A stretch of DNA of 62,039 bases, filler included, from Catajapyx aquilonaris (GCA_000934665.2; 3 parts of 3 records of this genome joined end to end with filler, not necessarily neighbours in it); one strand, 5' to 3'. Shown: positions 1-17,849, counted from the whole stretch's first letter. Numbers and translations are program-made. Notes: generated by a model not told the origin, from the sequence alone.

Positions 1-155
1 TTGGACATTAATCTCTTCATACTGCTAGCTACATTTTCCAAAGCGGCAGGAAAACTAATCGAAGCTATGGATAGTGCAAGCCGTGCAAGCAAGATTCGTT
101 CTTCTGCTGCTTCGGAAAAGCTAGCAGTATGATGCGATTAATGTCCAACACTGTA
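1..155. mobile_element. MITE (Tc1/mariner-type ends), cut by window start; same family as 15171-15308
   Basis: Internal inverted arms TTGGACATTAATC...GATTAATGTCCAACACTG followed by TA; related copy at 15171-15308. Confidence 0.7.
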
Positions 156-814
156 CCTTGAGCACTCCAAATTTTATTTCAAAAACCATACTACAATATG
201 AACCAAAAGAACACTTCAAAAAATGCTAGTAGCAAAACGGATAGCAAATTGCAAAAGAAGGCATTCCAAAGCAGGCAAGTACCTCCATCTTCCTCATTGT
301 GACCCGTTGCATGAGTGATGGCTGAAAACCTTCGGTATTGACACTTTCGGAACGGAGGCTCGTAAGACAACCACGTTTTCAGTGCAACTGCAGGGTGGCA
401 TTCACCGCAGAAAAACACAGAAAAGTTATTTTCCGCCAAAGTGGCACTTGCCTCATTATGGAAGAGCACCCCTTGATTGTTCTTCCAAGCTTGTGAACGC
501 ATCTTCATACACAGTGAAGAATGGTAGGCACGCTAACCAAAAGTTATAGTTCCACTAACATTTCTAGCTGTTTAGCATTAGTGATGTCCATTGTTTTACT
601 GAGCAAGTTACAGGGGTCGAAATATTCGAATGCAAAGGTGCAAGTTGTATTGCATAATTGTCATCTGCACTCCAAACTGAGCCTTGCCTATGCTTTTAAA
701 CACTCAGTAATTAAAAATTAAGCGCTCCAAGTAAGCGATTTGCACTCCAGATTAAAGTCTGGATTGCAAACTTTGCATCTGGACAAAAATGTTAAAATTC
801 GGCCCCTGGGACCA

Positions 815-950
815 CCTTCCTTTAAAAGCACCATGGATGGGATCATCGTACTTTCTGTGGTCGTCAAATGGAAGGAGACTAAAAGCAGCTCTGGGTGTGA
901 AAAGAAGGGCTTTTCCATGCTTTCTATTCTCAATCTGAGCTGCCACATTG
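815..950 (+). ncRNA. SNORA21: Box H/ACA snoRNA, SNORA21/ACA21-like, copy 1 (upstream of FAM120A CDS, probably in a 5'-UTR intron)
   Basis: Hairpin CCTTCC...GGAAGG, H box AGACTA (876-881), hairpin GCAGCTC...GAGCTGC, ACA 945-947 plus 3 nt. Pocket 1 (AAAAGC/CGTC) matches 28S GACG-U-C-GCUUUU; pocket 2 (TGGGTG/CAATC) matches 28S GAUUG-U-U-CACCCA. Both pockets are 14 nt from the H/ACA box. Confidence 0.88.
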
Positions 951-1079
951 ATTTAACTCTTGACATGTTACATGTATAATCGTTAGCTGTTAACGAAAGT
1001 TAGCAGTGCCCACCATTGACAGTGAAGGTAAGAAAATGATGGTTTGGGTGGATGTGTAGGTAGGGCACGATAACGGACA

Positions 1080-1312
1080 AATGACGCCAACGTTTTGTTT
1101 AGCAATTCCTAGTCAGCGGAAATATGCCGAGCACACCTCTGGAACCTCCCACTTATCAAGTTTCCATGGAGATGCCATCGTGCAACAATTGACGTAAAAA
1201 TTTCCAAACAAATGCCTTAATTGTTGCATGGGGGCATTTCCATGGAAACTTGAAAAGTGGGAGGTTCCAGGGGTGTGTTCGGCATATTGGTAAACAAAAC
1301 AATGATGTCATT
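1080..1312. mobile_element. Palindromic MITE/foldback element
   Basis: Long arms ATATGCCGAGCACACCTCTGGAACCTCCCACTTATCAAGTTTCCATGGA and TCCATGGAAACTTGAAAAGTGGGAGGTTCCAGGGGTGTGTTCGGCATAT; partial related copy near 1466-1518. Confidence 0.7.
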
Positions 1313-4300
1313 TGAAAGTTATTGTGGCCTGCCTATAATTATATTCTTGCCAAGTCAGGATTGCCATACAGTGCAGAAAATGAACTGGCGATCTGACCTC
1401 ATTGTTTCTTACATTGTTCTTTTTTTGGCTGACATTGTTTACTCATATTGCTGTGTGAGGGCATCGCCATGGAAGCAGGAAAAGGGGGAGGTTCCAGAGG
1501 GGTGTTTGGCAGATTTCCTTTGAGTAGGAGTCTGTAAACAAAACGAGGACGTTGGGTCGAAGTAAGGGCGGGCCGCCTATAAGAGGCCACCAATTCACTT
1601 AAAAACAATAGTTTGCAAACTTGTGAACACACCTGTGAAGGTAATAAAGAGGTGATTTTGTTGAGCTGGATGTTGCGTCTGTAGCTGCTTGCAATGTCAG
1701 GAATGTTGAGTGCCACCCAAACTTCCAGCCAGAGCCATACGGGAGATAAGGAATGTATGTGGGTATGGGGCATGTTGAACATGCAGTTGTTGTGTGCTGC
1801 ACCTGCAGCTGTTGCTTCAGGAGTATCTCAGGGGAGAGAAACATTCCATGTCCACTGGCCTGTTGCTGTCTTTAGGAACTAAATTGAGAGAAAATTTGTT
1901 AGCAGGTTTTTTGGATCTCTCTGTTGTATTGTATTGTAACTCAAGCCAAAACAGATGAGGCCTGTTACTTAACAAACTTTATTGCCCGATCCAAATCAGC
2001 AAGTGGCTTTTAGAATTATGCGATTTTGATCATTTGACAAAGGTGGCATTAGCTACAGCTCACAAAGGAAAGCCTCTTGACAGGACATTCCGCCAATGAG
2101 TGTCCAAAAGTGAAGCGTCTTAAATGAAAGGTGCCAGCATGGATTCAAGACATTTCTTTTCGGCTCTACAGTTGTGCAGATAATACTCCATTGGCCGTAG
2201 AGGTGGAAAATTATACTTACGGGAATATAGCAACATAGGGAGCGTTCTCAATTCTTGTTTGTGGAACCTTCATATGCCACTTCATAGCACATTGTGAATA
2301 TTAAGAGGCCTAGCGTAGGGTAAGAATCATTTTGTCACTCTAGGGCATTTGAAGCTGCATATAAGTGTATTTTTCCATGCAACTTAAAACCAGAAGACTG
2401 AAATATTGGCCAACACAAAAGAAATATTACTGTAAGTGACCTGTGTGAATGTGTACAAACCTTCCCCCCTGAAGTTCACATAAAGTATTTAGATTGTTAT
2501 CAGCAAGGAAATTAGTTATGATTCTGATTGAAGGTGGAGAAAGTGTAAGACGTTCTTTGTGGTTCATCAATGTTGTTAGAGAATGCAGGTAAAGTACGGA
2601 TATTTGGATTGGTTTATAGTGGAAGAACTTGTAAGTCATTAGCCTGGGTAATACTTAGGGTGTTTAGAAGGGTGTTCTTGACAAAACACATGAGGGATTT
2701 TTGCACACATGCCCCAGCACTTGTGTGAGGAAGATCCCATGTGGAATTTCCCACTTTCCATTCTGGAAATGAAGTATTGTCTTGTTATGGCGACATTGAG
2801 GTCTGACCTCATTTATCAGAACCACCAGTATGCCCATGCCACACATTCAACCTAATAGTAGTAGGTAATATTTCATGTAAACTTTCAAATGAGCTTCTCC
2901 AAATAACTGCCTAAAGTTAAACTGATCAGTATGGTCAATTCAGTTGAAACACGCAAAGGTTGCATGGTTGTAAATGCTCAAAACATGTTATCTGGTCCAG
3001 AGACTAGGTGTGTGGGTGGGGAATGAAATCAGCAGCTGGCCAATCCAGAGCCGAGGATGCAACCTGGATGGGAAATTTAATAACCGGCATTCAAATTTAC
3101 AAAATTGTTGACATGAAAGGAAAGAATGATGTCAGAGCTGTTCCTGTGTTTTGTGTTCTTGTTGACAAAAGTATGTACAAGGAAGAAGTATGGATGAGGC
3201 ATTCTTTCTGATATTGTGTTGCCCTTCTTTGGTAATCACAACAGGAGGATATGGGAATTAATGCAATGTTTGTGCATGGGTTTGGCCATTAATTACTGCC
3301 ATCTCATGGAAGTACAGTTCATTCAGCAATGGGATGGGATTGATTCCAGAGGCTTTTAATTGTTGGTGGATGGCCGTTATAGCCTGTTATGGCATCAGAA
3401 TTCTCTGGCTGTATGAACTGCAATGTCATCACGTCCAGTAAACATGTAAATTTATACCACACTTGAATGTGGCCCAGCAGGATTGCCAATTTTTCCATTG
3501 ATTGTTTTTTACTAGAATACATAGAATTACTAGAATTTACATAGAATGCGAGCTATGAAATTCATTGTAGAATTAGGATAAAATTGGAGCGGCATGCAGT
3601 AAAATTTCAGTCCTCATGAACATATTTGCGTTAATGGGCCACATTGGTGGAATTTCTATTGTACTGCATTTTTATAGGGTGGCAGTAATTTATTTATGTG
3701 CCAGTTGTAGTTGCTGCTTCCTGTTACTTCTGCTTGCATTTTTCTATGTGTTCTTTTAGTAAGGACATTGTTCAGTGGTACGTTGGAGAGCGTAGCCAAT
3801 TGTCACTATGTTTATGTACGTGGTACTAAATTGTAAATGGTACCACATTACCTCTGAAGCCTGCAGGTGTCAACACTTCACAACTTTTGGCAAAATGCTA
3901 CTACCTTCCTCCGACTCTCTGAGCAAGTTTTAAATTCTTAAAATGAGCAAGAGGTAACAATTTTTTATAGATTTGCTCATTTACAGAAGCAATGACTCAG
4001 TCTCATATGGGCATTACTTGTACCATCTATTGGATTGCAAGCTCTGGTTCAGGCATATGTTTCTGAACAGGTGGATATTATCAGTAAAATAACGTTCATG
4101 CAATATAAGACCAGCTGAGTGGCATAAAACAGTTGCACTTCTAGTAGAAGAGGAAACTAGGAGCTGTGGCAGAGATATCATCTAGTAGTCCGACTTATTT
4201 TGTGGTTGTTATAACGTATTTGTATATGTTTTAAGTGCGGCCTGGGTACATAGTCTATTGTAGTTTTAGCTATGAACGTTCACTGTAACTGCCACCAATA

Positions 4301-4530
4301 TGACATGCACTGTATGACAATTTGTCTTCTTGTGTAATTTTTTTATGGGTTCCACAAGTCCTTCTGTAATATCCGATGCACGTGTGAATTCTAGGGAGTT
4401 GCCAATGTACTTTGTTGCATATGAAGAAAGCTGTAACTATGTAGCTTGTATTACCAGTTATCTATAGACAGGTCCATTAATGAAGTTCCTCTTCTTTGCA
4501 GTAAATTGGAACAATACAACACATTCAGCC

Positions 4531-4636
4531 ATGTGAATTCTTCACCACACCGCATCAAAACATTCGACATATTAAATCTCATGATGAAACAAATGCGTCG
4601 GAAACCATAATTATGATCTTGGCCAGACTTTTTTAA
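4531..4636 (+). promoter_or_regulatory. Three short uORFs in the FAM120A 5'-UTR exon
   Basis: Putative acceptor TTCTTTGCAG ends 4501; ATG-TGA 4531-4536, MMKQMRRKP* 4581-4610 and MILARLF* 4613-4636 precede the main ATG at 4694. Confidence 0.45.
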
Positions 4637-4693
4637 ATTGACCCTAAATTGAGGGGGGAGAAAACTTTTACATATCTTTGAAACACAACAAAC

Positions 4694-7600
4694 ATGGGAA
4701 TTCAAGACCTACAGACATTCATACAGAGCCAACTCCCTGGAGCTGCGGTCCCCGTGGATCTTCTGAAGATTGGACGAAATTTCATTTCCACCCAGCGCAG
4801 ACTCTACCAGAAGGGAGGAAAGGGTGGGGGTGCTCCAGTCCCCACCCCATACAGGGGACGCCTCTGCCTGGTAGTAGACGGGGAGTGCTGCCTGGACAGG
4901 CTGTACGGAGGATACTTCTCTGACTGGGCATGTGGGGGGCAGTGGAATCGAATGGTGCAGTTCCTGGCAGTCCTAGTCAATGCCATACAGACCAACCAAA
5001 TTGAATTCGCAGTCTTCTTCAACGGATGCTTGGAACAGGAGCGAATGGCCGACTGGATCAAGGGGCAGCAGGCTGTCAGGCAGAACGTCAACCAGGTTTT
5101 GAAGCATATTGGCTTGAAGGGAACGCCCCCACCCAAGGTGTGGTGGGTGGCCCCCGTCTGCCTGAGGACCTGTCTGCGTATGGCACTCAGGCATCTCAAT
5201 GTTGCTGTGGTAAGTTACAAAGTTTTAGTGCTTATAATATTGTAAAAATGTCACTTTTACCTGTCCTGGGAACAAAAAGCTAAAATCTAAGCGTACTGTA
5301 ACATTTGGACGAATTGCGTGTATCTCGCAGCATTAAAATATTGTACAGTTCACTTAGAAACTCGGAATATACATTTGTAGTGACTCTCAGTGACATAGCA
5401 TCAGGTTCCTCCTACCAGTTAGGGATGCAATCCAAAATAATAATAGTAGCAAGTTGAGTAGCAGTTGCGGTGTTGCTCATGCTAAATTTAATTTCAGATG
5501 TGCACCATGGATGACCACCATCAGGAAGTCATTGCATACTGCCGAGAAAACAACTTCGATGGCCTTCTGGCAGAAGATGCTGAGTACGCTGTCTTCGACC
5601 CGCCACATTACTTCTCTTCTGAACAACTCAAGCTGACTTACAAAGTACGCTTCTATTCTTGATCATAACTCCAAGAAGTAGGCTTATGATCTGGTTTACT
5701 AATGTCAGTGATTGTCTTCTACTTTCAGGGATCTCTGGAGACCAAAGAATACATGTTGAGAGAAGTGGCCAAGGGTCTTGACCTAAATCCAGTCCGCATG
5801 TGTGTCTTCGCAGCCCTCCTTGGCAACTATTTGCTCACAGATGACGACCTATCTGCATTTTACAAGAAAGTGTGCAACGAGCCTGGTCAAACCAAGGGAG
5901 TAAGTAGGAATTTGTCTCTTGGTGTCGCAGTTGCATGACCTTCCTTAAAAAGCACCATGGTTGTGATAACTTTACCTACTGTGGTTGTCAACGGGAAGGA
6001 GATTGAGACAGTTCTGGGTGTGATCAGGAGATTTTTATGTGTGCTTACTGGTCTCAATCTGAGCTGTAACATTGAATATATGAATGTTGTTTACTCGCTA
6101 TGAACAAATGGCATTATTTGTGTTCTTCAATTATAGGTCAGTCGGGAGTCCATGCTGAAATCGGTGGCTGCTTTTGTCCGGTCCCTTCCTTCCACTGACA
6201 ACTTAGATGCTATTGGTGAACAAATTTTCGGCCCTTCTGACCCAAGGATTGGACGCTTCAAGCACTGTGTGCAGTATTACATCAATGGTACCAAGGATGG
6301 ATTCCTTAGATACAACCCTACCCTATCTGGAGGTAATCCATTACATTCATTCCAATCCTTAAAATTATGAGGTGTAATCCAGATCATGGAATGGCATGAT
6401 TTCTGAATGTCATGTGTATTAGAATGAGCATTAAATTGTAACACTGACACTCAGCTCTGAGATATTTCAAGTGTAAATGTGACGGTAGAAAATTTTTCGA
6501 GAGCAGATTTAACAGTAACGGAACATTGTGATTTGAATGCAGGAATTTTCTGTAACTGTGAATTATAATTGTAACTACTCTCGTTCAGGTGGAAATCGAC
6601 GCAACGCAAACAAAACATCCTCAAGTGGAAAGTCCTCTTCCCAGAATCAGACCACTGAAGAGAAACCAGAGAGCACCATCAAATTTGCATCTGAAACAGC
6701 AGAAAGCGAGGTAGTTTGGGAAATCTTTGGGTCATGACGATTGAGGCTCACTCTTGTTTCTTGATTCCTCAGAAAGACAGCCTGGCAGCTTACAAGGTAG
6801 CCACTTCAGGAACCAAGCTGGCCCCAGAGATTGTAATCGAGTCACCAGATACACCGCAAGAAACGGATGGGAAAGAAGTAGTGAAAGCTGCGGGTGAAGA
6901 AGAGAAGAAGATAGGTCAGAACACGTTATTCGTTATTATTATTAAACATCCACATTCAGGAAAATTGATGGTGCCACGTACCTGTTTTGTAGTGTCCTTA
7001 TATTCATTGTAAGCCACCTGTAGTAAACAATCCTACTCTAAAAATTGTGCATCCAGCTACCATAGCTGTTAAGGAAAGTCACAACATGAACAGTCACCTG
7101 TTAAGTAAATTTAGGTAAGGGGCCACCTTCCTTTAAAAGCACCGTGGATGGGATCATCAAACTTTCTGTGGTCGTCAAATGGAAGGAGACTAAAAGCAGT
7201 TCTGGGTGTGAAAAGAAGGGCTTTTCCATGCTTTCTATTCTCAATCTGAGCTGCCACATTGATTTAACTCAATTGACATGTTACATGTATATGATGTAAT
7301 ATGGTATCGAAACTCATCTGATGCGAACTGTCATGTTACATGTTCAATATGTGGTTTATTGCAGCTGGTGAGAAGGAGCCTACTACTACCGTCTCAACCG
7401 GCACCAGTGCCACAGCGCAAGCGAGTCCACAGCATGCAGTCAATGGTGCCCACTTGCTGAGTTCATCAAGTTCCAGTAGCAGTTCCAGTGCCGCCTCTCC
7501 CAACAGGCTGACTCCAGATGTGTCCTGGAACACACAATCGCAGAGAGGGAACGTGAGTACCACAGACTGTGTTGAAATAGGCCAGTTGTAACATCTGATC

Positions 7601-10600
7601 CTCTGGATTATCCCAGAGCAACGTTAAGAATGGCATTGACAGTAATTGCAACTCCAATTTGAAGGCTACCAAGATGCTGAGTGTACCACCTGAGGTGATG
7701 CGCACAGCAAGTGAGCGACATCAGAAGGGCCTCATGTCTCCTTACATCTACCAGATACTCAATCAAGTAAGAGGACTATGCTTGTATGAGATTACCTACT
7801 GATGTAGTTGCATGAGCGACTTGTCAGCTTTAACAAGGGCTGTGAGTACTGACACTACAAAATTTCTTCCTTAAAAGCACCATGGACGGCATAATTTTGC
7901 CCACCATGGTTGTCACATGGAAGGAGATTAAAAGTAGTTCTGGGTGTGAACAGAAGTATACATTAATGCTGACTGTTCTCAATCTGAACTGCAACATTTA
8001 TTAACAAGTTTTGTCCCAGTCATGTAAACCACTGCGGGAAATATTTTGCACCTAGGTGCATCTGCACTAGTGTAAGTGCCAATTGGTGATGTTCTCTTGC
8101 AAAAATTAAGGTTGTCATATACAGTTTTCTGGCACAATCATTTACTTAGTACATTATAATGCAGTTTTTATATTGCAGAAGGTGGCACATATTTAACTTG
8201 TTTCACTGCTTTTAACCATTTGCAAAACATTAATTTGTAAAATTTAGCAACAGAATAAGGGAATTTTAAGCTGATGCATGGGGCATTCCAATTTCACTAA
8301 GGCTGCTCAAAAAACCGTAGTTTAATTGAATTTTTCCTTTCTTATCTACAGGGGGAGATCAAGCTTTCGGTACTGATGGAGGAAGAAGCAAGCAAAGAGC
8401 TTCCAAACATACACATTCTCTATCGTCCAGTTCGTCAGATGGTGTATGCCATCTTGTTCAACCTGCACCACTACATCTACCTCTCAAACCAGCATGCAGA
8501 GGGGAAGAGTGAACGTAAGGTGGACATCCCCGAGGTCAAGGTCAAGGAGTGGGTCTGGTCCAAGAGTAATCCACTGCAACATCCTGACCATGTACCTGCT
8601 GAGCCTATCGGATGGGCTGTTCCTACTGTTCAAAAGCTTTGGTTTGGGTAAGCCTCAGGTTACTGTTCCATTTACTTTGTTCAATCATGATGTTCCCGTA
8701 ATTAGCTTGACAAATTTTTTCCAACGTGGGCCTGCAACTTCCTATCGTCTCATCTTGCAACGCATCAATTAAATTCTTGTAGATATTGCAGGGGTTGAAT
8801 GCTACTGAAAATGTACAAGACAGAAAGTAGTTCAGGGATTTATTAGTCCAAACAAAAGGGGTTTAGCTTACAATACTGTCTTACACGTTTGCCACTCAAA
8901 AAGTGGTTGACGTGCATTTCCCATGGCATCGACACAAACTGATCAGGGGATGATTTTTGTCACAAGGTCTGCTGTGGATGACAAGAGAAGACGACTGAGG
9001 GCATTTCTTACCTGCATGAGGTCAGACACTCAACTGATTCTTTGCCCGGATTATGTTCCCCAGCATATGCTTGTCATGGCATGTGTCTTGAGGTAAGGCA
9101 ATGGCTGATTCTGTACGAGTTTTTCTCTGCATAGATGTGAATAAACTATTGCATTGACCCTGATGTGGTTGGTGGGTCGACAATACTGTGCCTATCTGAT
9201 AGTGGGCCATGTTTGGGTTGGGTGTAAGATTTGCATAAAGGGCCCAGTTGATACATTTCACTGCTGATAGGCTAGTACGCATGTCAAAAAATCAATTCAA
9301 TATAAACTATTTGCATAGACATTGAAATGTTTTTTTCGTTGTTGTTTACAGGTACATCGTGTCGTACCCAGCATGTCGTGTGCTTCACAGGCATGAGCTG
9401 GATGCCTTCATAGTCCAGGCCTTCTCCCCTGAGCTGATGAACGCACAGGATTTGCAAGAGCTTCAGCTTCCTGTGGTGTCAGTCAGGGGTGTCCAGTTGG
9501 CAGCTCTTTTCACGCAGGGGATAGAGATGGCACTGCTGGCCAATGATGCGTGTGGGGCTCCTGTTCCATGGCTCATGTGTTGCCCTTGGCTGTTCTTCGA
9601 TGGTAAACTCTTCCATGCCAAGCTGCACAAAGCCACCATTTCCAAGGATATGTATGAACTGTGTGACTGCCAGTATGAACTGCATGCAAAGGTTGACAAG
9701 ATGAAGAAGGCCATACTTGAGGGGATGGAGCCCAGGTTTGCCAGGTCGACTGCTATAAATCCCTTGCCAAGTGAGTTTATTCCTCTTGTTCACGGAACAG
9801 TTTCAAGCAATTGATTTTGTACACTATCTATGGTAACTCAGACAGGGTGGGAGTCAGTACTGTAGACCTTTTCATAGAAAGAAAAAATGCGAGGCTAGGA
9901 AAGATATTCTTGTCATAATGCTGATGATTTGTTTTCTTTTGCAGCCATGAGAATGGGACTTCCAACTCAGTCATACAGTATGATCCCGCCTCCACCCCCA
10001 CGGGATGTCCCACCCCCGTTCCATCATCCTATGTATGATGGAAGGACAGGGCGCAATAACATGCCTGGTCGCAGGCCTGTCCCCTTGTCAGGAGGCAAGC
10101 TCCAGATTGCTGGAGTGACTGTCGGCAGCTGGGGCCCCAATTACGGGAGCTATCCAGGTGGTGGTGGAAGAGGTGGGAACAGGGCAGGAAATGGCAGTGG
10201 GCATAGGGCAGGGAGTGGAGGTGGTCACAACCACCACCACCCGCATCATCCGCACCACCCGCACCATGCACACCATCCGCACCATCCGCAAGGGAATATC
10301 GGACGGGATGGGACTCCATTACAGGTGACAAATGTAGGGCCCCATCAGGGCTGGGGATACCAACACAAGCACATGGGGAATTATGGTATACCACCTGCTG
10401 GAATGTCAGGAAGGCCATCCTACACACCCATGAGAGTAGGAGCTGGCCAGAGGGGGGGAGGAACTGGAGCTTTCCGGGGACGGAAGATGCCTGTCAATAA
10501 CGTGGTACGTATCACTAGCTATGAGTTTTTTAGCATCATCTTGTGCATATGGGAATTTTATTTTGTCAGTAATACTGAGAAAGATATTTCCAAAATTAGT

Positions 10601-11523
10601 GCATTGTGCAAGCTCATCACAGGTTTTGTTAATAATGTGTCACTGGAATTGGTGGCACCTTACCTTTTCGACAAAACAGGAATTGCACAAGTGAGGTCGG
10701 CTTATTTTGTCATATTGAGATCCAATGGGAACGTAAGCTGAAGAAATATGCATTATTTTCACCGCTGTTTTAAGTTTTTCCTATGAAATCTAGTTTCTGC
10801 CAGGTGGTGCAAGGTTTGCATTCAAGGTTGACCCTTTTACTCAAATTTTACTGGTGGGTCATTCGCATAATTTGCTGGTGTTTTGTAATGAGTGTAATAT
10901 TTTTGTTTCTTTGTCAGTTTCTTAATATTTTTTTTTCTTTCATTTCAGCCGTCCAATGGGAAGAAGAAACTCATACCTAACAAAAAGACTGTCTACAAAG
11001 AGACTGAAAAGAAGGACAGCAAGGGGCGTGGGATGACAGTCGACACACCTAACGGCATGTATGTTGACAATTTAAAGTGTTTCATACTTTCTACTTTAGT
11101 CTAAAAGAAACTGCACTTCCAAATGTGGAGTGAGCGCTGTGAATAATATTTTAGAATGCCCGTTTTGGAGCATTACGACATGTAGAGTACCGTTGACCCA
11201 TTTAAACATTTCTGATCAACAGCAGGTCTGCTGTCCCATCACACCTGCTGAAGCAGAATGGCAGTGGTGATGCAACATCCGCCAATGGCCCTTCCTGCAA
11301 CAATGACGCAGGGAGTGAAGAGAGCGAGCCAGAAGTTGCAATTGAGCAATTCGAGGATGTGGACGATAACGTCGCCGTAGGAACAGAAACCTCCAAGGAC
11401 TCAGTGGCTACAAAGGATATGGTGCCCTCAAAGGAAACTATGGTCACCAAGGATGCAGTGGCTGAAAAGGGAGGGGGCGATGGTCCGGACATTATACCAG
11501 ATGTAGTTTCTGCCAACGAGTGA
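4694..11523 (+). CDS. FAM120A: FAM120A-like protein (constitutive coactivator of PPAR-gamma-like protein 1 homolog; PIN-like N-terminus, Gly/His-rich RNA-binding-type C-terminus), 14 coding exons, ~1147 aa
   Basis: Exons joined by hand with GT-AG sites and consistent phases: 4694-5209, 5498-5644, 5729-5899, 6137-6332, 6589-6710, 6773-6914, 7365-7552, 7617-7766, 8352-8647, 8967-9092, 9352-9770, 9945-10504, 10949-11058, 11223-11523 (3444 nt, stop TGA 11521-11523). FAM120-family motifs: MGIQDLQTFI, LVVDGECCLDRLYGGYFSDWACGGQWN, GTPPPKVW, DDHHQEVIAYCRENNF, ANDACGAPVPWLMCCPWLFFDGKLF. Confidence 0.93.
5939..6074 (+). ncRNA. SNORA21: Box H/ACA snoRNA, SNORA21-like, copy 2 (FAM120A intron 5900-6136)
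   Basis: Same architecture; guides AAAAGC/TGTC and TGGGTG/CAATC kept, variant H box AGATTGA, ACA 6069-6071; upper stem changed to GATCAG/CTGGTC with pairing retained. Confidence 0.86.
7126..7261 (+). ncRNA. SNORA21: Box H/ACA snoRNA, SNORA21-like, copy 3 (FAM120A intron 6915-7364)
   Basis: Near-identical to copy 1; H box AGACTA, ACA 7256-7258, both guide pockets intact. Confidence 0.88.
7865..7999 (+). ncRNA. SNORA21: Box H/ACA snoRNA, SNORA21-like, copy 4 (FAM120A intron 7767-8351)
   Basis: H box AGATTA 7925-7930, ACA 7994-7996, guides AAAAGC/TGTC and TGGGTG/CAATC; stems GTAGTTC/GAACTGC and GAACAG/CTGTTC keep pairing despite substitutions. Confidence 0.86.
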
Positions 11524-14500
11524 GTCGTCGTGAGAGTTTAATCAGGGCTGGGAAAAACGTGGAGACATCTGGAACACTCGCAAGTAGACCGTTTAAGAAA
11601 CCAAGTGATAGTTCAAACAAGACACGATAACGGGGTATATTAAGTAAGGGTTGGGAAGGGAGGGGGGAACAAAGGGGGATAAAAAGAATGGTAGAAAGAG
11701 AGAGAGAGGGAGGGAGAGGGAGAGAGAGAAAAACATGGAGTATATTTTTCTATGTTTGTTATTTTGTTACAAAGGTTTATAATAAGCCCAAAGTTGTTGA
11801 CCATCATGTGCTTTGTTTATCCCCCTGTTACTTCTAAACCAGGTGGCGTTTTGCACTGTTTGGTGACAGCTGAGGGGCAAACAAAGACCATGAGTGATTT
11901 CAAAGTTGTGTATGGGGAGGGGGAGCGTGATCACTATTAGTGACGACTGCCATCCCCCTCACCAGAAGAGTTAATAATAGGGAGGTTGAAAAAAAATAAT
12001 AATAATGTAAGGTGCCAATGGACTGGATATTTTAGGACTTGCACTTTCTGCTTTTTGGCATCAAGACCTAAGTTTTTTGGTGTAAGGTAAATCCCAGAAA
12101 AGTGCATTCACATTGATGACAAAAAATATATATATATTGGCTCTCCCTATTTGTGCAACTGGAACGCAAAATAATTTAAATACACATGAAACTTTACACA
12201 CACGTACCGCCAGCCAGGACATGGTCCTGCATGATTTTGCAGCACTGCAACTTTTAACAGTGCAACATGATTTTTAATGGATATATATTAAAAAGCTGAC
12301 TTTGTAGCCCACACAAATGCCTCATAAGTGCAAGGCAAATGATATTTTTTTCATGCTAAAAATGGGTGGTTTTACGCTGAAAAAAAAAAGCGATATTTTA
12401 ATGGAGGTTTAAAAGAAGCCACACTAAATGAAAAGAAGTTACAGCTAAACTTGTATACAAAGCCATGGACATGACTTCACCAGTAGTAAGGTATAAACTT
12501 GAGGGATATTTCGCGATGAAAACCCAATTTTTAAATGAGAATATGGCCATTAGCTTGACAGGCCAGATCTTGTTTGAGTGACTAAAACTAACCCAAAAAA
12601 TAATAATAAACTGAGACACTGCTGTGTTTTTTTCCCCAACGGAAATGATTCACATAAAATGCTGTTGACAGCTCTTTGAAAAGTTATCAAAGGTGACTTT
12701 TTGCAGATGCAATGCACATGAAGAAAAAAAAAAAATGAATGAAAAGAAAAATGTAGAACTGATCTAACGATTGTGAGTTTGCAGTTTTTGAAAATGTCGG
12801 ACTTTATCTTGAAAGCAACTAACTGTGTTGCAATGAAGATGAAAAATGAAAGACAAACTGATTGCATGAATAAATTTTTCAAACTGGTAAAAGAAAAGGG
12901 GGCCCACTTCCTACCAAACTTTGTGAGTTTTTGAAAAAAACCGATGTTTGTATTTGTTTTTTTGTTCCCATTTATTTAGGTTAGGGATAACTTTACATGA
13001 TTGATGAAAGATGATGATGATGATGAAATGATGATGAAACTCTTTAACTGAACTCTTCGTGTCTCTTTGTGTAGAATTTAAGCAAGCTGGGAAAAAAAAA
13101 GAAAAAAGGAAAATTTACTGAAATGAACATTTGTAGGCTTAAACTTGTGCTCTTACTGTATCTTTTATTACAATGGAAAAGGAACCTGTCACTGCAACAC
13201 GCCAGAAGATTTTGTTTCGTTTAGGTTTTTTTTTCTCTCGTGACCCTGGCGATCTCCATGTTAATGAGCAAGGAGATGATTAAAGCGGGGCAAGAATACA
13301 TAGGTTTAGATTTCTTGAGGGCAGTGAATTTTCGAGGGTGATTTTTGAAAAGCGTAAACACATGGGTGAAAAGAAAAGCGAGCGGAGGCAACAATTTTTT
13401 TGTGGAGCATTAATTAACGTTATTCTGCAAAGCAATCCATTTTATGTCAAATGATTGATTGTTGTGACGTGTAAACTACAAAGTAAAAGTGAACCAGTTT
13501 TTTCTCCCCACTGCCTAAAAATATGTAATGAAAAAGGCTTTTGTATTAAGTTTGACAATTATAATAATTTTTTTTTGTGGAGAATTTCACATTGCACTTG
13601 TCGTTGAAGAACCATGAGTAAAAAATGCTGTTAAACTTTTTAAGTAGTAGTAACGTGTTGGGAAATTGTAAACTGGTGTTTAGTGTAGCATTTGTTTTTT
13701 TGCGCCCTTTTTTTCCACCGTGTCTGCAACGCAAGTAATTTTTTTAGTAAATCGTTTTAGTTACAGTTTTTAAAAAATTGAGGTTCGCGATTTAGTCTTA
13801 CGTGATTTTTTTTTTCTTTGTGTTTTCTCTGGGGAATATACAAAAAATGAAGTATCTATCATAGTCAAGTATGTAGCTTGCTTTTCAAATATAGTTAATA
13901 ACGTGAATAATCAAGAAGCACAGTTTATCAGAAGGAAAACATATTATAAAGTGGGCCCCTATTTAAAAAAAAGAACTGCAGTTTATCCTTCTAAAACATA
14001 AGCATCTTAACAGAGTTTGATTTTTTGTTTATATGAAGAAAAGAAAAAAATGTATTAATCTAGTTCCAATAATTTTCTTTTTGTGTTTTTCATTGAGCAA
14101 ACATAGAATTTTCAATATCAGCTGATGCCTGGAGAACAAACAAGCAATGTAATAATAATAATCGATCGGGAAACAATGACTTTGAAGTAATGCGCAAAAT
14201 TTGCCTTTTTTATTTTATCAATAACTAATTACCAAGCTGCTTGTTCGCTCCAAGTACAGGTCAAGTAATGTCTAATTTGTCTTTAATGTTTCTAAGTATA
14301 GCAAATTGAAACTTCGAAGCACTGCTAGGTGGAGTCAGGATATGGTGCAAAGTTGCCAAGATAATGGTTAATTTTTAAAGTGACATCCAATATACACATC
14401 TCTTTTTTTGGTGCAAAGTGCTGACATGTGCAAAAAAAATAATAATGATTTCAAGTGGGAGGGATAGAAAAGAGAGGTATTGATGAGCCATGTCCCAAAT

Positions 14501-16370: not shown

Positions 16371-17849
16371 CACAATGTTGCTGTTGAGGTGTTTACTGAT
16401 ATGATCTGCTTGTTAACAACCCCGTTTAATTACCTCTTATTAATATCATAATTGGTACGATCATATTTAGAACCCGATGCGTACTATCCGGTTGTTAAAT
16501 TCCACACAAGCGGATCTCAACCCTGCGACGAACCCTGGGCTGGGTTCGAGTTTAATCCCGTCCCCCGGTCCGTGGATCCAGTCGTGTGGACCCCGTCACA
16601 CCGAGCCCAAATGTGTCCGCCATCTTTAGTTTTTGAACCTAAACTCTCGTCTCTCTCGTTCTGAGGGATAGACACACACACTTACACCGGGGACAACTTC
16701 TCTTCCCCTGGAACATATAATCCAAAAGGGGGGGAAGGATTAAGAAGGAGCAGAGGATATATAAGGAAAATACCCCATCGGAGCTGAGAAACGGGGGGGA
16801 CTTAAGAACAGCAGGTAAGGAAAAATAATTTGGGTGTCAAAAATAAGTGATGGTTCGAATCAAGTTCGAATAGGTTCGAAACTTTTTGGATATGTTCGAA
16901 TAGGACAGAATGGATTGGAACGAATTTTTTTTGCGGAGGCGGGATTGTGGGTTGTCATCATTTTTTAAGAAGGAATAGAACTGCTTCAATTTTAATGTTA
17001 AATGTTGCAGTTTAATGTTAATTTCATGACTGCTTGTGTTCTAATATGTGCTGATTACATGTGCATAGTCGTAAGTAGGTCTGGTGCAGGCAGGTCGGGT
17101 AGTCGCACATTAGGGTTAACAGTCGGTTCGTCGAACAGTAGTATTAACGATGAATTAAGCTGCAATGTTGCTTCTAGATATGTTAGGTGTCATTCGCGGT
17201 TTTTGCAAACCCATGAAAGGTACTGACAAAACGCATCGGGACATACCGAGTGAACTGTACATCAAGAACTGATGTGTACCACAGTACAGATACCTTAATG
17301 AGCTCAACTTTGACTGTACTAATGAAGTTTACATGTACGCACAATTTTTGCACTTATACATCAGACGTGAAGACCAAGCTGGTACACACAGCCAAGTAAA
17401 CGACATATTTTAACTAACATTGATAGTAATTTTGCGTAGGTTGGTGCAGGGAACGTGTGAGAGACGAATTAAAACCATTTGCAACAAGTCTGAGCTTTTC
17501 AAGGGTTGCCATCTTGCCACTTAGGCTAGGGCCTAGAGAGATCGTGATGCATTGGCATCTGGGGGTGAATTATGAGGGTGAAAAGTGATTAAAAACCATA
17601 ACATAAATGGGAAAAGTTGTTACAGTTAAACATTTAAAGGTTTAAAAGTGAATTGGTTGTGACTGAAGAACACTAGTGGGCCGTGATCAGTAGGGATCCG
17701 ACGATACAGAAAAACATTATCTCGCCTTCACTGGCCTCCCCACTGTTTTATTTATTGTTGACCATTGGTATTGACTAAATCCATTAGGGACCACGAGAAA
17801 AAATATGCCAGCACAAACCCTAGGCTACTCGTGATTGTATCAGAGATCG

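Follow-up and report, generated by a model that had tools for sequence, protein, structure and literature searches.

What are the four similar elements of ~135 nt that recur in and upstream of the coding part of a FAM120A orthologue of Catajapyx aquilonaris? The question arose from a stretch of 62,039 nt (GCA_000934665.2; three parts joined end to end with filler), referred to here as the window, in which a first-pass annotation had described four SNORA21-type box H/ACA small nucleolar RNAs (snoRNAs) hosted by the FAM120A transcription unit. The results below are consistent with the idea that all four are paralogous genes encoding a single box H/ACA pseudouridylation guide snoRNA, the arthropod counterpart of SNORA21/ACA21, with an snR10-type 3′ hairpin; from the sequence we give this reading a probability of roughly 85%. 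The elements are listed here with bit scores for a covariance model of the four copies (R1) or for Rfam families.

815 to 950, + strand: candidate H/ACA snoRNA, copy 1 (R1 165.5 bits; SNORA21 30.3 bits), made up of a 5′ hairpin (815 to 875), the hinge box AGACUA (876 to 881), a 3′ hairpin (885 to 944) and ACA (945 to 947) followed by 3 nt
5939 to 6074, + strand: candidate H/ACA snoRNA, copy 2 (hinge box AGAUUG; SNORA21 30.5 bits), in the intron at 5900 to 6136
7126 to 7261, + strand: candidate H/ACA snoRNA, copy 3 (SNORA21 28.7 bits), unlike copy 1 at 4 of 136 positions
7865 to 7999, + strand: candidate H/ACA snoRNA, copy 4 (135 nt; SNORA21 29.7 bits; ceN82 24.1 bits; fold z-score −5.37)

The alignment of the four paralogs (~136 nt each) comprised 137 columns with a mean column identity of 87%. 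Pairwise identity was 72–77%, the exception being copies 1 and 3 (132/136). This similarity stops at the element borders, since the 40-nt flanks of all pairs showed only 7–17 identities in 40 when compared without gaps. In gapped alignments copies 1 and 3 alone shared some flank, ~10 bp upstream and ~30 bp downstream, and this pair therefore represents a recent duplication of a ~180-bp segment; neither a poly(A) tract nor terminal repeats accompany it. Judged by these comparisons, the copies arose through local duplication inside the gene, copies 1 and 3 being the most recent. When R1 was run over the whole window on both strands with the filters off, it matched the four copies only (140.8–165.5 bits); the next-best row (30 were returned at E up to 10) scored 23.1 bits and lay antisense over copy 4. 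The 11-mer TCTGGGTGTGA had exactly four exact sites, one in each copy, plus a site with one mismatch at 17558. The alignment, the model scan and the protein matches described below thus bore out the claim that four paralogs lie at these positions, all sense to FAM120A.

The presence of several copies inside 7.2 kb could also be taken to mean that a short mobile repeat (a short interspersed nuclear element, a miniature inverted-repeat transposable element (MITE) or a snoRNA-derived retroposon) merely resembles an H/ACA RNA. Only four copies occur in 62 kb, though, all within a single gene and in the same orientation; neither a poly(A) tail nor a target-site duplication was seen at any of the four, the likeness of flanks being restricted to copies 1 and 3; and the guides are kept while the loops diverge, in pockets with a specific bipartite complementarity to ribosomal RNA (rRNA). 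A mobile repeat is therefore highly improbable.

Each copy, when folded alone, was predicted to form a minimum free energy structure consisting of a hairpin, a hinge, a second hairpin and a tail, with the hinge and the tail single-stranded; this corresponds to the hairpin–H–hairpin–ACA+3 architecture described by the first-pass annotation, and the order hairpin–hinge–hairpin–tail was seen in the fold of every copy. Compared with 200 shuffles, the folds of copies 1, 2 and 3 gave z-scores of −2.81, −2.87 and −1.63 (−5.37 for copy 4, as listed). The hinge box reads AGACUA in copies 1 and 3, AGAUUG in copy 2 and AGAUUA in copy 4. All four elements close with ACA plus exactly 3 nt, and in copies 2 and 4 the similarity between paralogs stops 3 nt past ACA. 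An explicit H/ACA structure with open pockets, comprising 31 pairs, was then tested on the four-copy alignment. Standard pairing was found in 96.7% of 122 cells, against 39.5–54.1% when the 3′ partners were slid by 1–3 columns, and none of 500 shuffles reached the observed paired fraction. The individual copies kept 28–31 of the 31 pairs. Five pairs were altered on both sides in a compensatory manner, and in general, therefore, the co-variation of the stems that had been claimed holds.

The way in which variation is distributed over the alignment points in the same direction. Just 1 of the 22 guide-strand columns varied, compared with 2 of 9 in the H and ACA boxes, 24 of 62 in the stems and 26 of 44 in all other columns; the difference between the guides and the remaining unpaired columns was significant (Fisher P = 1.2 × 10–5). 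The sole variable guide column is a C/U change opposite G, in agreement with the description of the pockets as invariant apart from a C/T change that keeps G pairing. Since the guides are invariant even between copies that are only 72–77% identical, selection on each lineage can be argued. As read from the alignment, this pattern is characteristic of a guide RNA and speaks against a decaying repeat.

To find the predicted targets, public metagenome contigs were searched with a pattern made of the reverse complements of the guide strands alone, with U–N at the apex of each pocket and the two sites separated by a gap of variable length. The pattern matched at least 100 loci; among the matches listed the span was 81 nt in 96 cases and 82 nt in 4. 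A span of 81 nt places the two target uridines 69 nt apart. One locus, L001, was classified with Rfam and proved to be eukaryotic large subunit (LSU) rRNA (RF02543, LSU_rRNA_eukarya; 1905.8 bits, model positions 1348–3401). The other loci were tied to L001 by blastn, in which 98 of the 100 listed loci matched it (L074 and L082 did not). Each pocket was subsequently scanned against all uridines in the 1990 nt of LSU rRNA in L001. For every copy the best site of the 5′ pocket was U1505, in GACG-UN-GCUUUU, with 10 bp (13 bp in copy 2) divided into 4 + 6–9 bp, while the best site of the 3′ pocket was U1574, in GGAUUG-UU-CACCCA, with 12 bp (6 + 6 bp) and no runner-up. These totals were reached by 2–56 of 2000 shuffled pockets in the case of the 5′ pocket and by 12–18 of 2000 in that of the 3′ pocket; the 5′ pocket is weaker than the 3′ pocket. 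Among LSU sequences, the unpaired N that follows the first target varies (T, C, A or G), as expected at a position where pairing is not needed. Counted on alignment columns, 14 nt separate the H or ACA box from the guide base that comes first after the upper stem (15 when U117 is included). Both pockets thus show a bipartite complementarity to rRNA around an unpaired U–N, at a distance from the box that falls within the 14–16 nt expected of H/ACA RNAs. The claim that the pockets match conserved 28S-type sequence was thus upheld, with best LSU sites 69 nt apart. The predicted 28S target sequences of the guides are GACGUNGCUUUU and GGAUUGUUCACCCA, the second of which we take to be helix 92 (H92).

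Assignment to a known family was less straightforward. A search of the whole window with Rfam at gathering thresholds returned no hits. In permissive searches SNORA21 (RF00412) was the best family for all four copies, its model being aligned end to end (positions 1–136); E-values were 0.0036–0.01 for copies 1–3 (7.7 kb searched) and 2 × 10–4 for copy 4 (261 nt searched), and the alignments reproduced the coordinates that the elements had been given in the first-pass annotation. The Rfam check proposed there thus gave SNORA21 as the best family with full model coverage, at ~30 bits against a gathering threshold of 80. The low scores are due to stems and loops that are unrelated in sequence. The SNORA21 consensus nevertheless holds the identical guide strings UAAAAGC, GUCAA, GGGUG and CAAUC in the same hairpins, and the two LSU sites are spaced like positions 4401 and 4470, the human SNORA21 targets. 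The Rfam snR10 family gave no match in the copy searches at E up to 10. Taken together, the best Rfam family and the LSU pairing of both pockets support a SNORA21-type H/ACA identity: the elements are probably genuine, distant SNORA21/snR10-type guides and a distant SNORA21 orthologue. Besides SNORA21, the 7.7-kb search returned weak C/D-like rows (snR50, SNORD125 and snoZ185; E 2.9–8.9). Over 8300–14500, Rfam in E-value mode returned a single row, sR5 (21.1 bits, E 0.13), and no additional snoRNA in the introns downstream.

Several points weigh against this identification. The SNORA21 scores (28.7–30.5 bits) are far under the gathering score of 80, which excludes the elements from formal membership of the Rfam family. 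The covariation rests on four sequences, two of them near-identical, and the structure was derived from the same four. The stem GAAAAG/CUAUUC, offered in the first-pass annotation as an example of co-variation, does not serve as one: the 3′ upper stem of copies 1 and 3 contains an A·A mismatch, while the 6-bp helix is perfect in copies 2 and 4. In copy 2 the last letter of the hinge box, AGAUUG, does not fit ANANNA; the same ending is found in AGAGuG, the Rfam SNORA21 consensus. One side of the 5′ pocket pairs over 4 bp only, a runner-up site of 9 bp exists, and the 10-bp total of this pocket in copies 1, 3 and 4 was equalled by 37–56 of 2000 shuffled pockets. The matched LSU loci come from unrelated environmental eukaryotes, not from the 28S rRNA of C. 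aquilonaris. Finally, we infer from the DNA the processed ~135-nt RNA, its expression and the modification of the species' own 28S rRNA, and likewise the membership of copy 1 in the FAM120A unit.

The host gene and the intron that may contain copy 1 are as follows.

4501 to 11635, the 3′ part continuing past 11635, + strand: FAM120A orthologue, host gene, recognised by protein matches and transcript contigs
4501 to 5208, + strand: first FAM120A exon in the window, with an ATG at 4694
1 to 4500, + strand: putative first intron of the host, in its 5′ untranslated region (5′UTR), with the acceptor ...ttctttgcag at 4499 to 4500

Of 951 candidate proteins, 338 matched the first coding exon with an E-value of 0.001 or less; 120 of them were listed, the best of these showing 68% identity (E 7.7 × 10–76). 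The named matches inspected in this list were all arthropod proteins, some hypothetical but most annotated as 'constitutive coactivator of PPAR-gamma-like protein 1 homolog'. Transcript contigs were obtained from one public run that covers the stretch (X1), whose kind is unrecorded. These contigs join across 12 GT..AG introns, which means that the run derives from spliced RNA. The intron at 5900–6136 contains copy 2, which is separated from the donor by 39 nt and from the acceptor by 62 nt; copy 3 is found in an intron at about 6913–7362 and copy 4 in the intron at 7767–8351, both joined across by the contigs. The distance to the acceptor is 62–352 nt for copies 2–4 and 3550 nt for copy 1 (acceptor at 4500). 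The first-pass annotation had placed three copies in separate introns and one upstream of the coding sequence, and the contigs agree, joining the introns around copies 2–4 and leaving copy 1 3.5 kb before an acceptor. The depth of X1 over copies 2–4 is explained by the neighbouring exons, without cover on the snoRNAs themselves; with its unrecorded library type, this run says nothing on expression.

The position of copy 1 requires a separate argument. The messenger RNA contig match begins at 4501, straight after ...ttctttgcag, and is preceded in the contig by 116 letters, the last 30 of which had no match in the 62-kb window with up to 3 mismatches. As these upstream letters are absent from the window, the first exon must lie outside it, most simply to the left. 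In some X1 contigs, ends that look spliced occur at 122/123, 155, 471 and 752 (the one at 752 follows CAG at 748–750), and the 30-letter continuations at 155, 471 and 752 had no match in the 62-kb window. The ends at 121–471 and 752 could be alternative 5′ exons of FAM120A, parts of another gene or assembly chimeras, and the contig start at 752 may belong to an alternative exon immediately 5′ of copy 1. Copy 1 might accordingly be thought to sit outside the FAM120A unit, in some other transcript (that of an upstream gene or a non-coding RNA with an exon near 751) or under a promoter of its own. Such an arrangement would fit the contig match that starts at 752, whose 201 preceding letters are found nowhere in the window and are unlike the 30 letters in front of the FAM120A exon at 4501, and it would fit the further spliced-looking pieces at about 121–471. 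Set against this, the 116 upstream letters of the FAM120A mRNA that are absent from the window and the canonical acceptor at 4500 make it the simplest layout that the first exon lies left of the window and that copy 1 stands in intron 1, in the sense direction; moreover, copy 1 is a near-identical duplicate of the intronic copy 3. A separate unit for copy 1 is thus unlikely, and copy 1 probably lies in a 5′UTR intron of FAM120A of more than 4.5 kb.

A further possibility is that some copies are duplicates in decay, without stable processing, in which case the real dosage would be less than four. Copies 1 and 2 would be the candidates, the former because of its distance from the acceptor, well above that of the other three copies, and the latter because of its deviant hinge box; in addition, the fold of copy 3 is the least distinct, 10 of 200 shuffles being as good. 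However, no copy has lost either pocket, the ACA box or any helix, the guides have stayed invariant despite the divergence of the copies, and the G at the last hinge-box position of copy 2 is shared with the SNORA21 consensus. We regard decay of some copies as rather unlikely.

Intron-encoded H/ACA guides are the rule in animals. If the four elements are guide snoRNAs, each would be transcribed within the FAM120A pre-mRNA and freed by splicing and debranching, after which exonucleases would trim it to ~135 nt ending 3 nt past ACA, with dyskerin, Nop10, Nhp2 and Gar1 protecting the RNA. The 5′ pocket (AAAAGC ... YGUC) would then pair with GACG-UN-GCUUUU of LSU rRNA, and the 3′ pocket (UGGGUG ... 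CAAUCU) with GGAUUG-UU-CACCCA in the A-loop (H92), each pocket positioning a target uridine for isomerisation, 14–15 nt upstream of the H or ACA box.

Comparison with known systems helps to place these elements. Table 6 of PMC13204842 gives RPL23 as the host of SNORA21/21B and positions 4401 and 4470 of 28S rRNA, 69 nt apart, as the targets, which agrees with what the first-pass annotation said of human ACA21. PMC5552212 describes SNORA21 as a 133-nt RNA from RPL23 intron 2-3 with the targets 'U4401 and U4480'; the second position conflicts with PMC13204842 and with the 69-nt spacing. Like human SNORA21/ACA21, the present elements would be intron-encoded, two-hairpin H/ACA RNAs of ~133–136 nt with the same guide strings and the same order of hairpins. 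They differ from it in that the host is FAM120A instead of RPL23, in that four copies occur in one gene, and in their unrelated stems and loops.

Yeast snR10 is an independent gene. PMC2879522 states that its 3′ hairpin guides Psi2923 (a pseudouridine) in the A-loop, the first-pass annotation having likewise named snR10 as a guide of the A-loop site, and the 3′ pocket of the present elements is predicted to serve the same site. The 5′ hairpin of snR10 serves 18S pre-rRNA processing instead of guiding a second pseudouridine (PMC2879522), unlike the situation predicted here. A likeness to another H/ACA RNA, Caenorhabditis ceN82 (RF01654), was seen for copy 4 only, for which it was the second-best Rfam family (24.1 bits, E 0.052). 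The alignment of ceN82 with copy 4 has the strings AAAAGCAC, GUCA and GGGUG in common; the score is far under the ceN82 gathering score of 80.

The significance that the first-pass annotation attached to the host, namely that a stress-linked RNA-binding-protein gene had been recruited as a multi-copy host that ties the dosage of A-loop guides to FAM120A transcription, stands only in part. No description of FAM120A as a snoRNA host was found in the literature, judged mostly by titles and the openings of abstracts, and in passages of PMC9454646 FAM120AOS figures as a predicted target, not as a host. The wider claim was overstated. Paralogs in different introns of one protein-coding host are typical of fly snoRNAs, among which there are multiple intronic H/ACA clusters (PMC5932544, citing Huang et al. 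2004/2005); the present layout resembles these Drosophila clusters, while species and host differ. Across eukaryotes, moreover, the intronic location of snoRNAs is unstable and drifts among broadly expressed hosts (PMC3511168). The tie between guide dosage and FAM120A transcription is generic to any intronic snoRNA and involves no special mechanism. The host relationship thus appears to be an ordinary case of a well-known pattern, seemingly undescribed for FAM120A.

If the identification is right, it would add four H/ACA snoRNA genes that lack annotation and are likely to represent the arthropod counterpart of SNORA21/snR10, whose predicted target is a universally conserved pseudouridine beside the ribosomal A-site, with both predicted sites near the catalytic centre. 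It would also provide another case of snoRNA host switching (RPL23 in human versus FAM120A here) combined with intragenic duplication. This would be useful for annotation and for comparative work on snoRNA mobility, and would leave the understanding of guide action unchanged. A bolder proposal is that FAM120A has been the long-standing, perhaps the only, home of the guide for the A-loop and helix 89 region across a large arthropod lineage, the four copies being retained because of dosage or because they are released in an isoform- or tissue-specific way, one of them from an alternative 5′ transcript that starts near 751. We consider this distinctly doubtful; were it true, A-loop modification would hinge on the splicing and transcription of a stress-granule-type RNA-binding-protein gene and not on those of a ribosomal-protein gene.

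Some other features of the locus were recorded. The FAM120A exon at 9945–10503, taken from the listing of open reading frames, encodes a Gly/Arg-rich and His-Pro repeat segment, HHHPHHPHHPHHAHHPHHP. The depth of X1 rises from ~10 over the 5′ exons to ~108 over 11629–14000, and the host seems to have a long 3′ exon/UTR at 11223–14000; within it, the contigs skip a repeat at 13000–13117 and carry a 1-nt insertion at 13805. A nested foldback, a MITE-like element, occupies 1057–1552 in the putative first intron, a short way downstream of copy 1. Its arms at 1121–1190 and 1219–1288 are 90% complementary, those at 1057–1106 and 1286–1335 78%, and those at 1084–1212 and 1424–1552 73%. This foldback accounts for the weak microRNA-like Rfam rows seen on both strands at 1159–1249.

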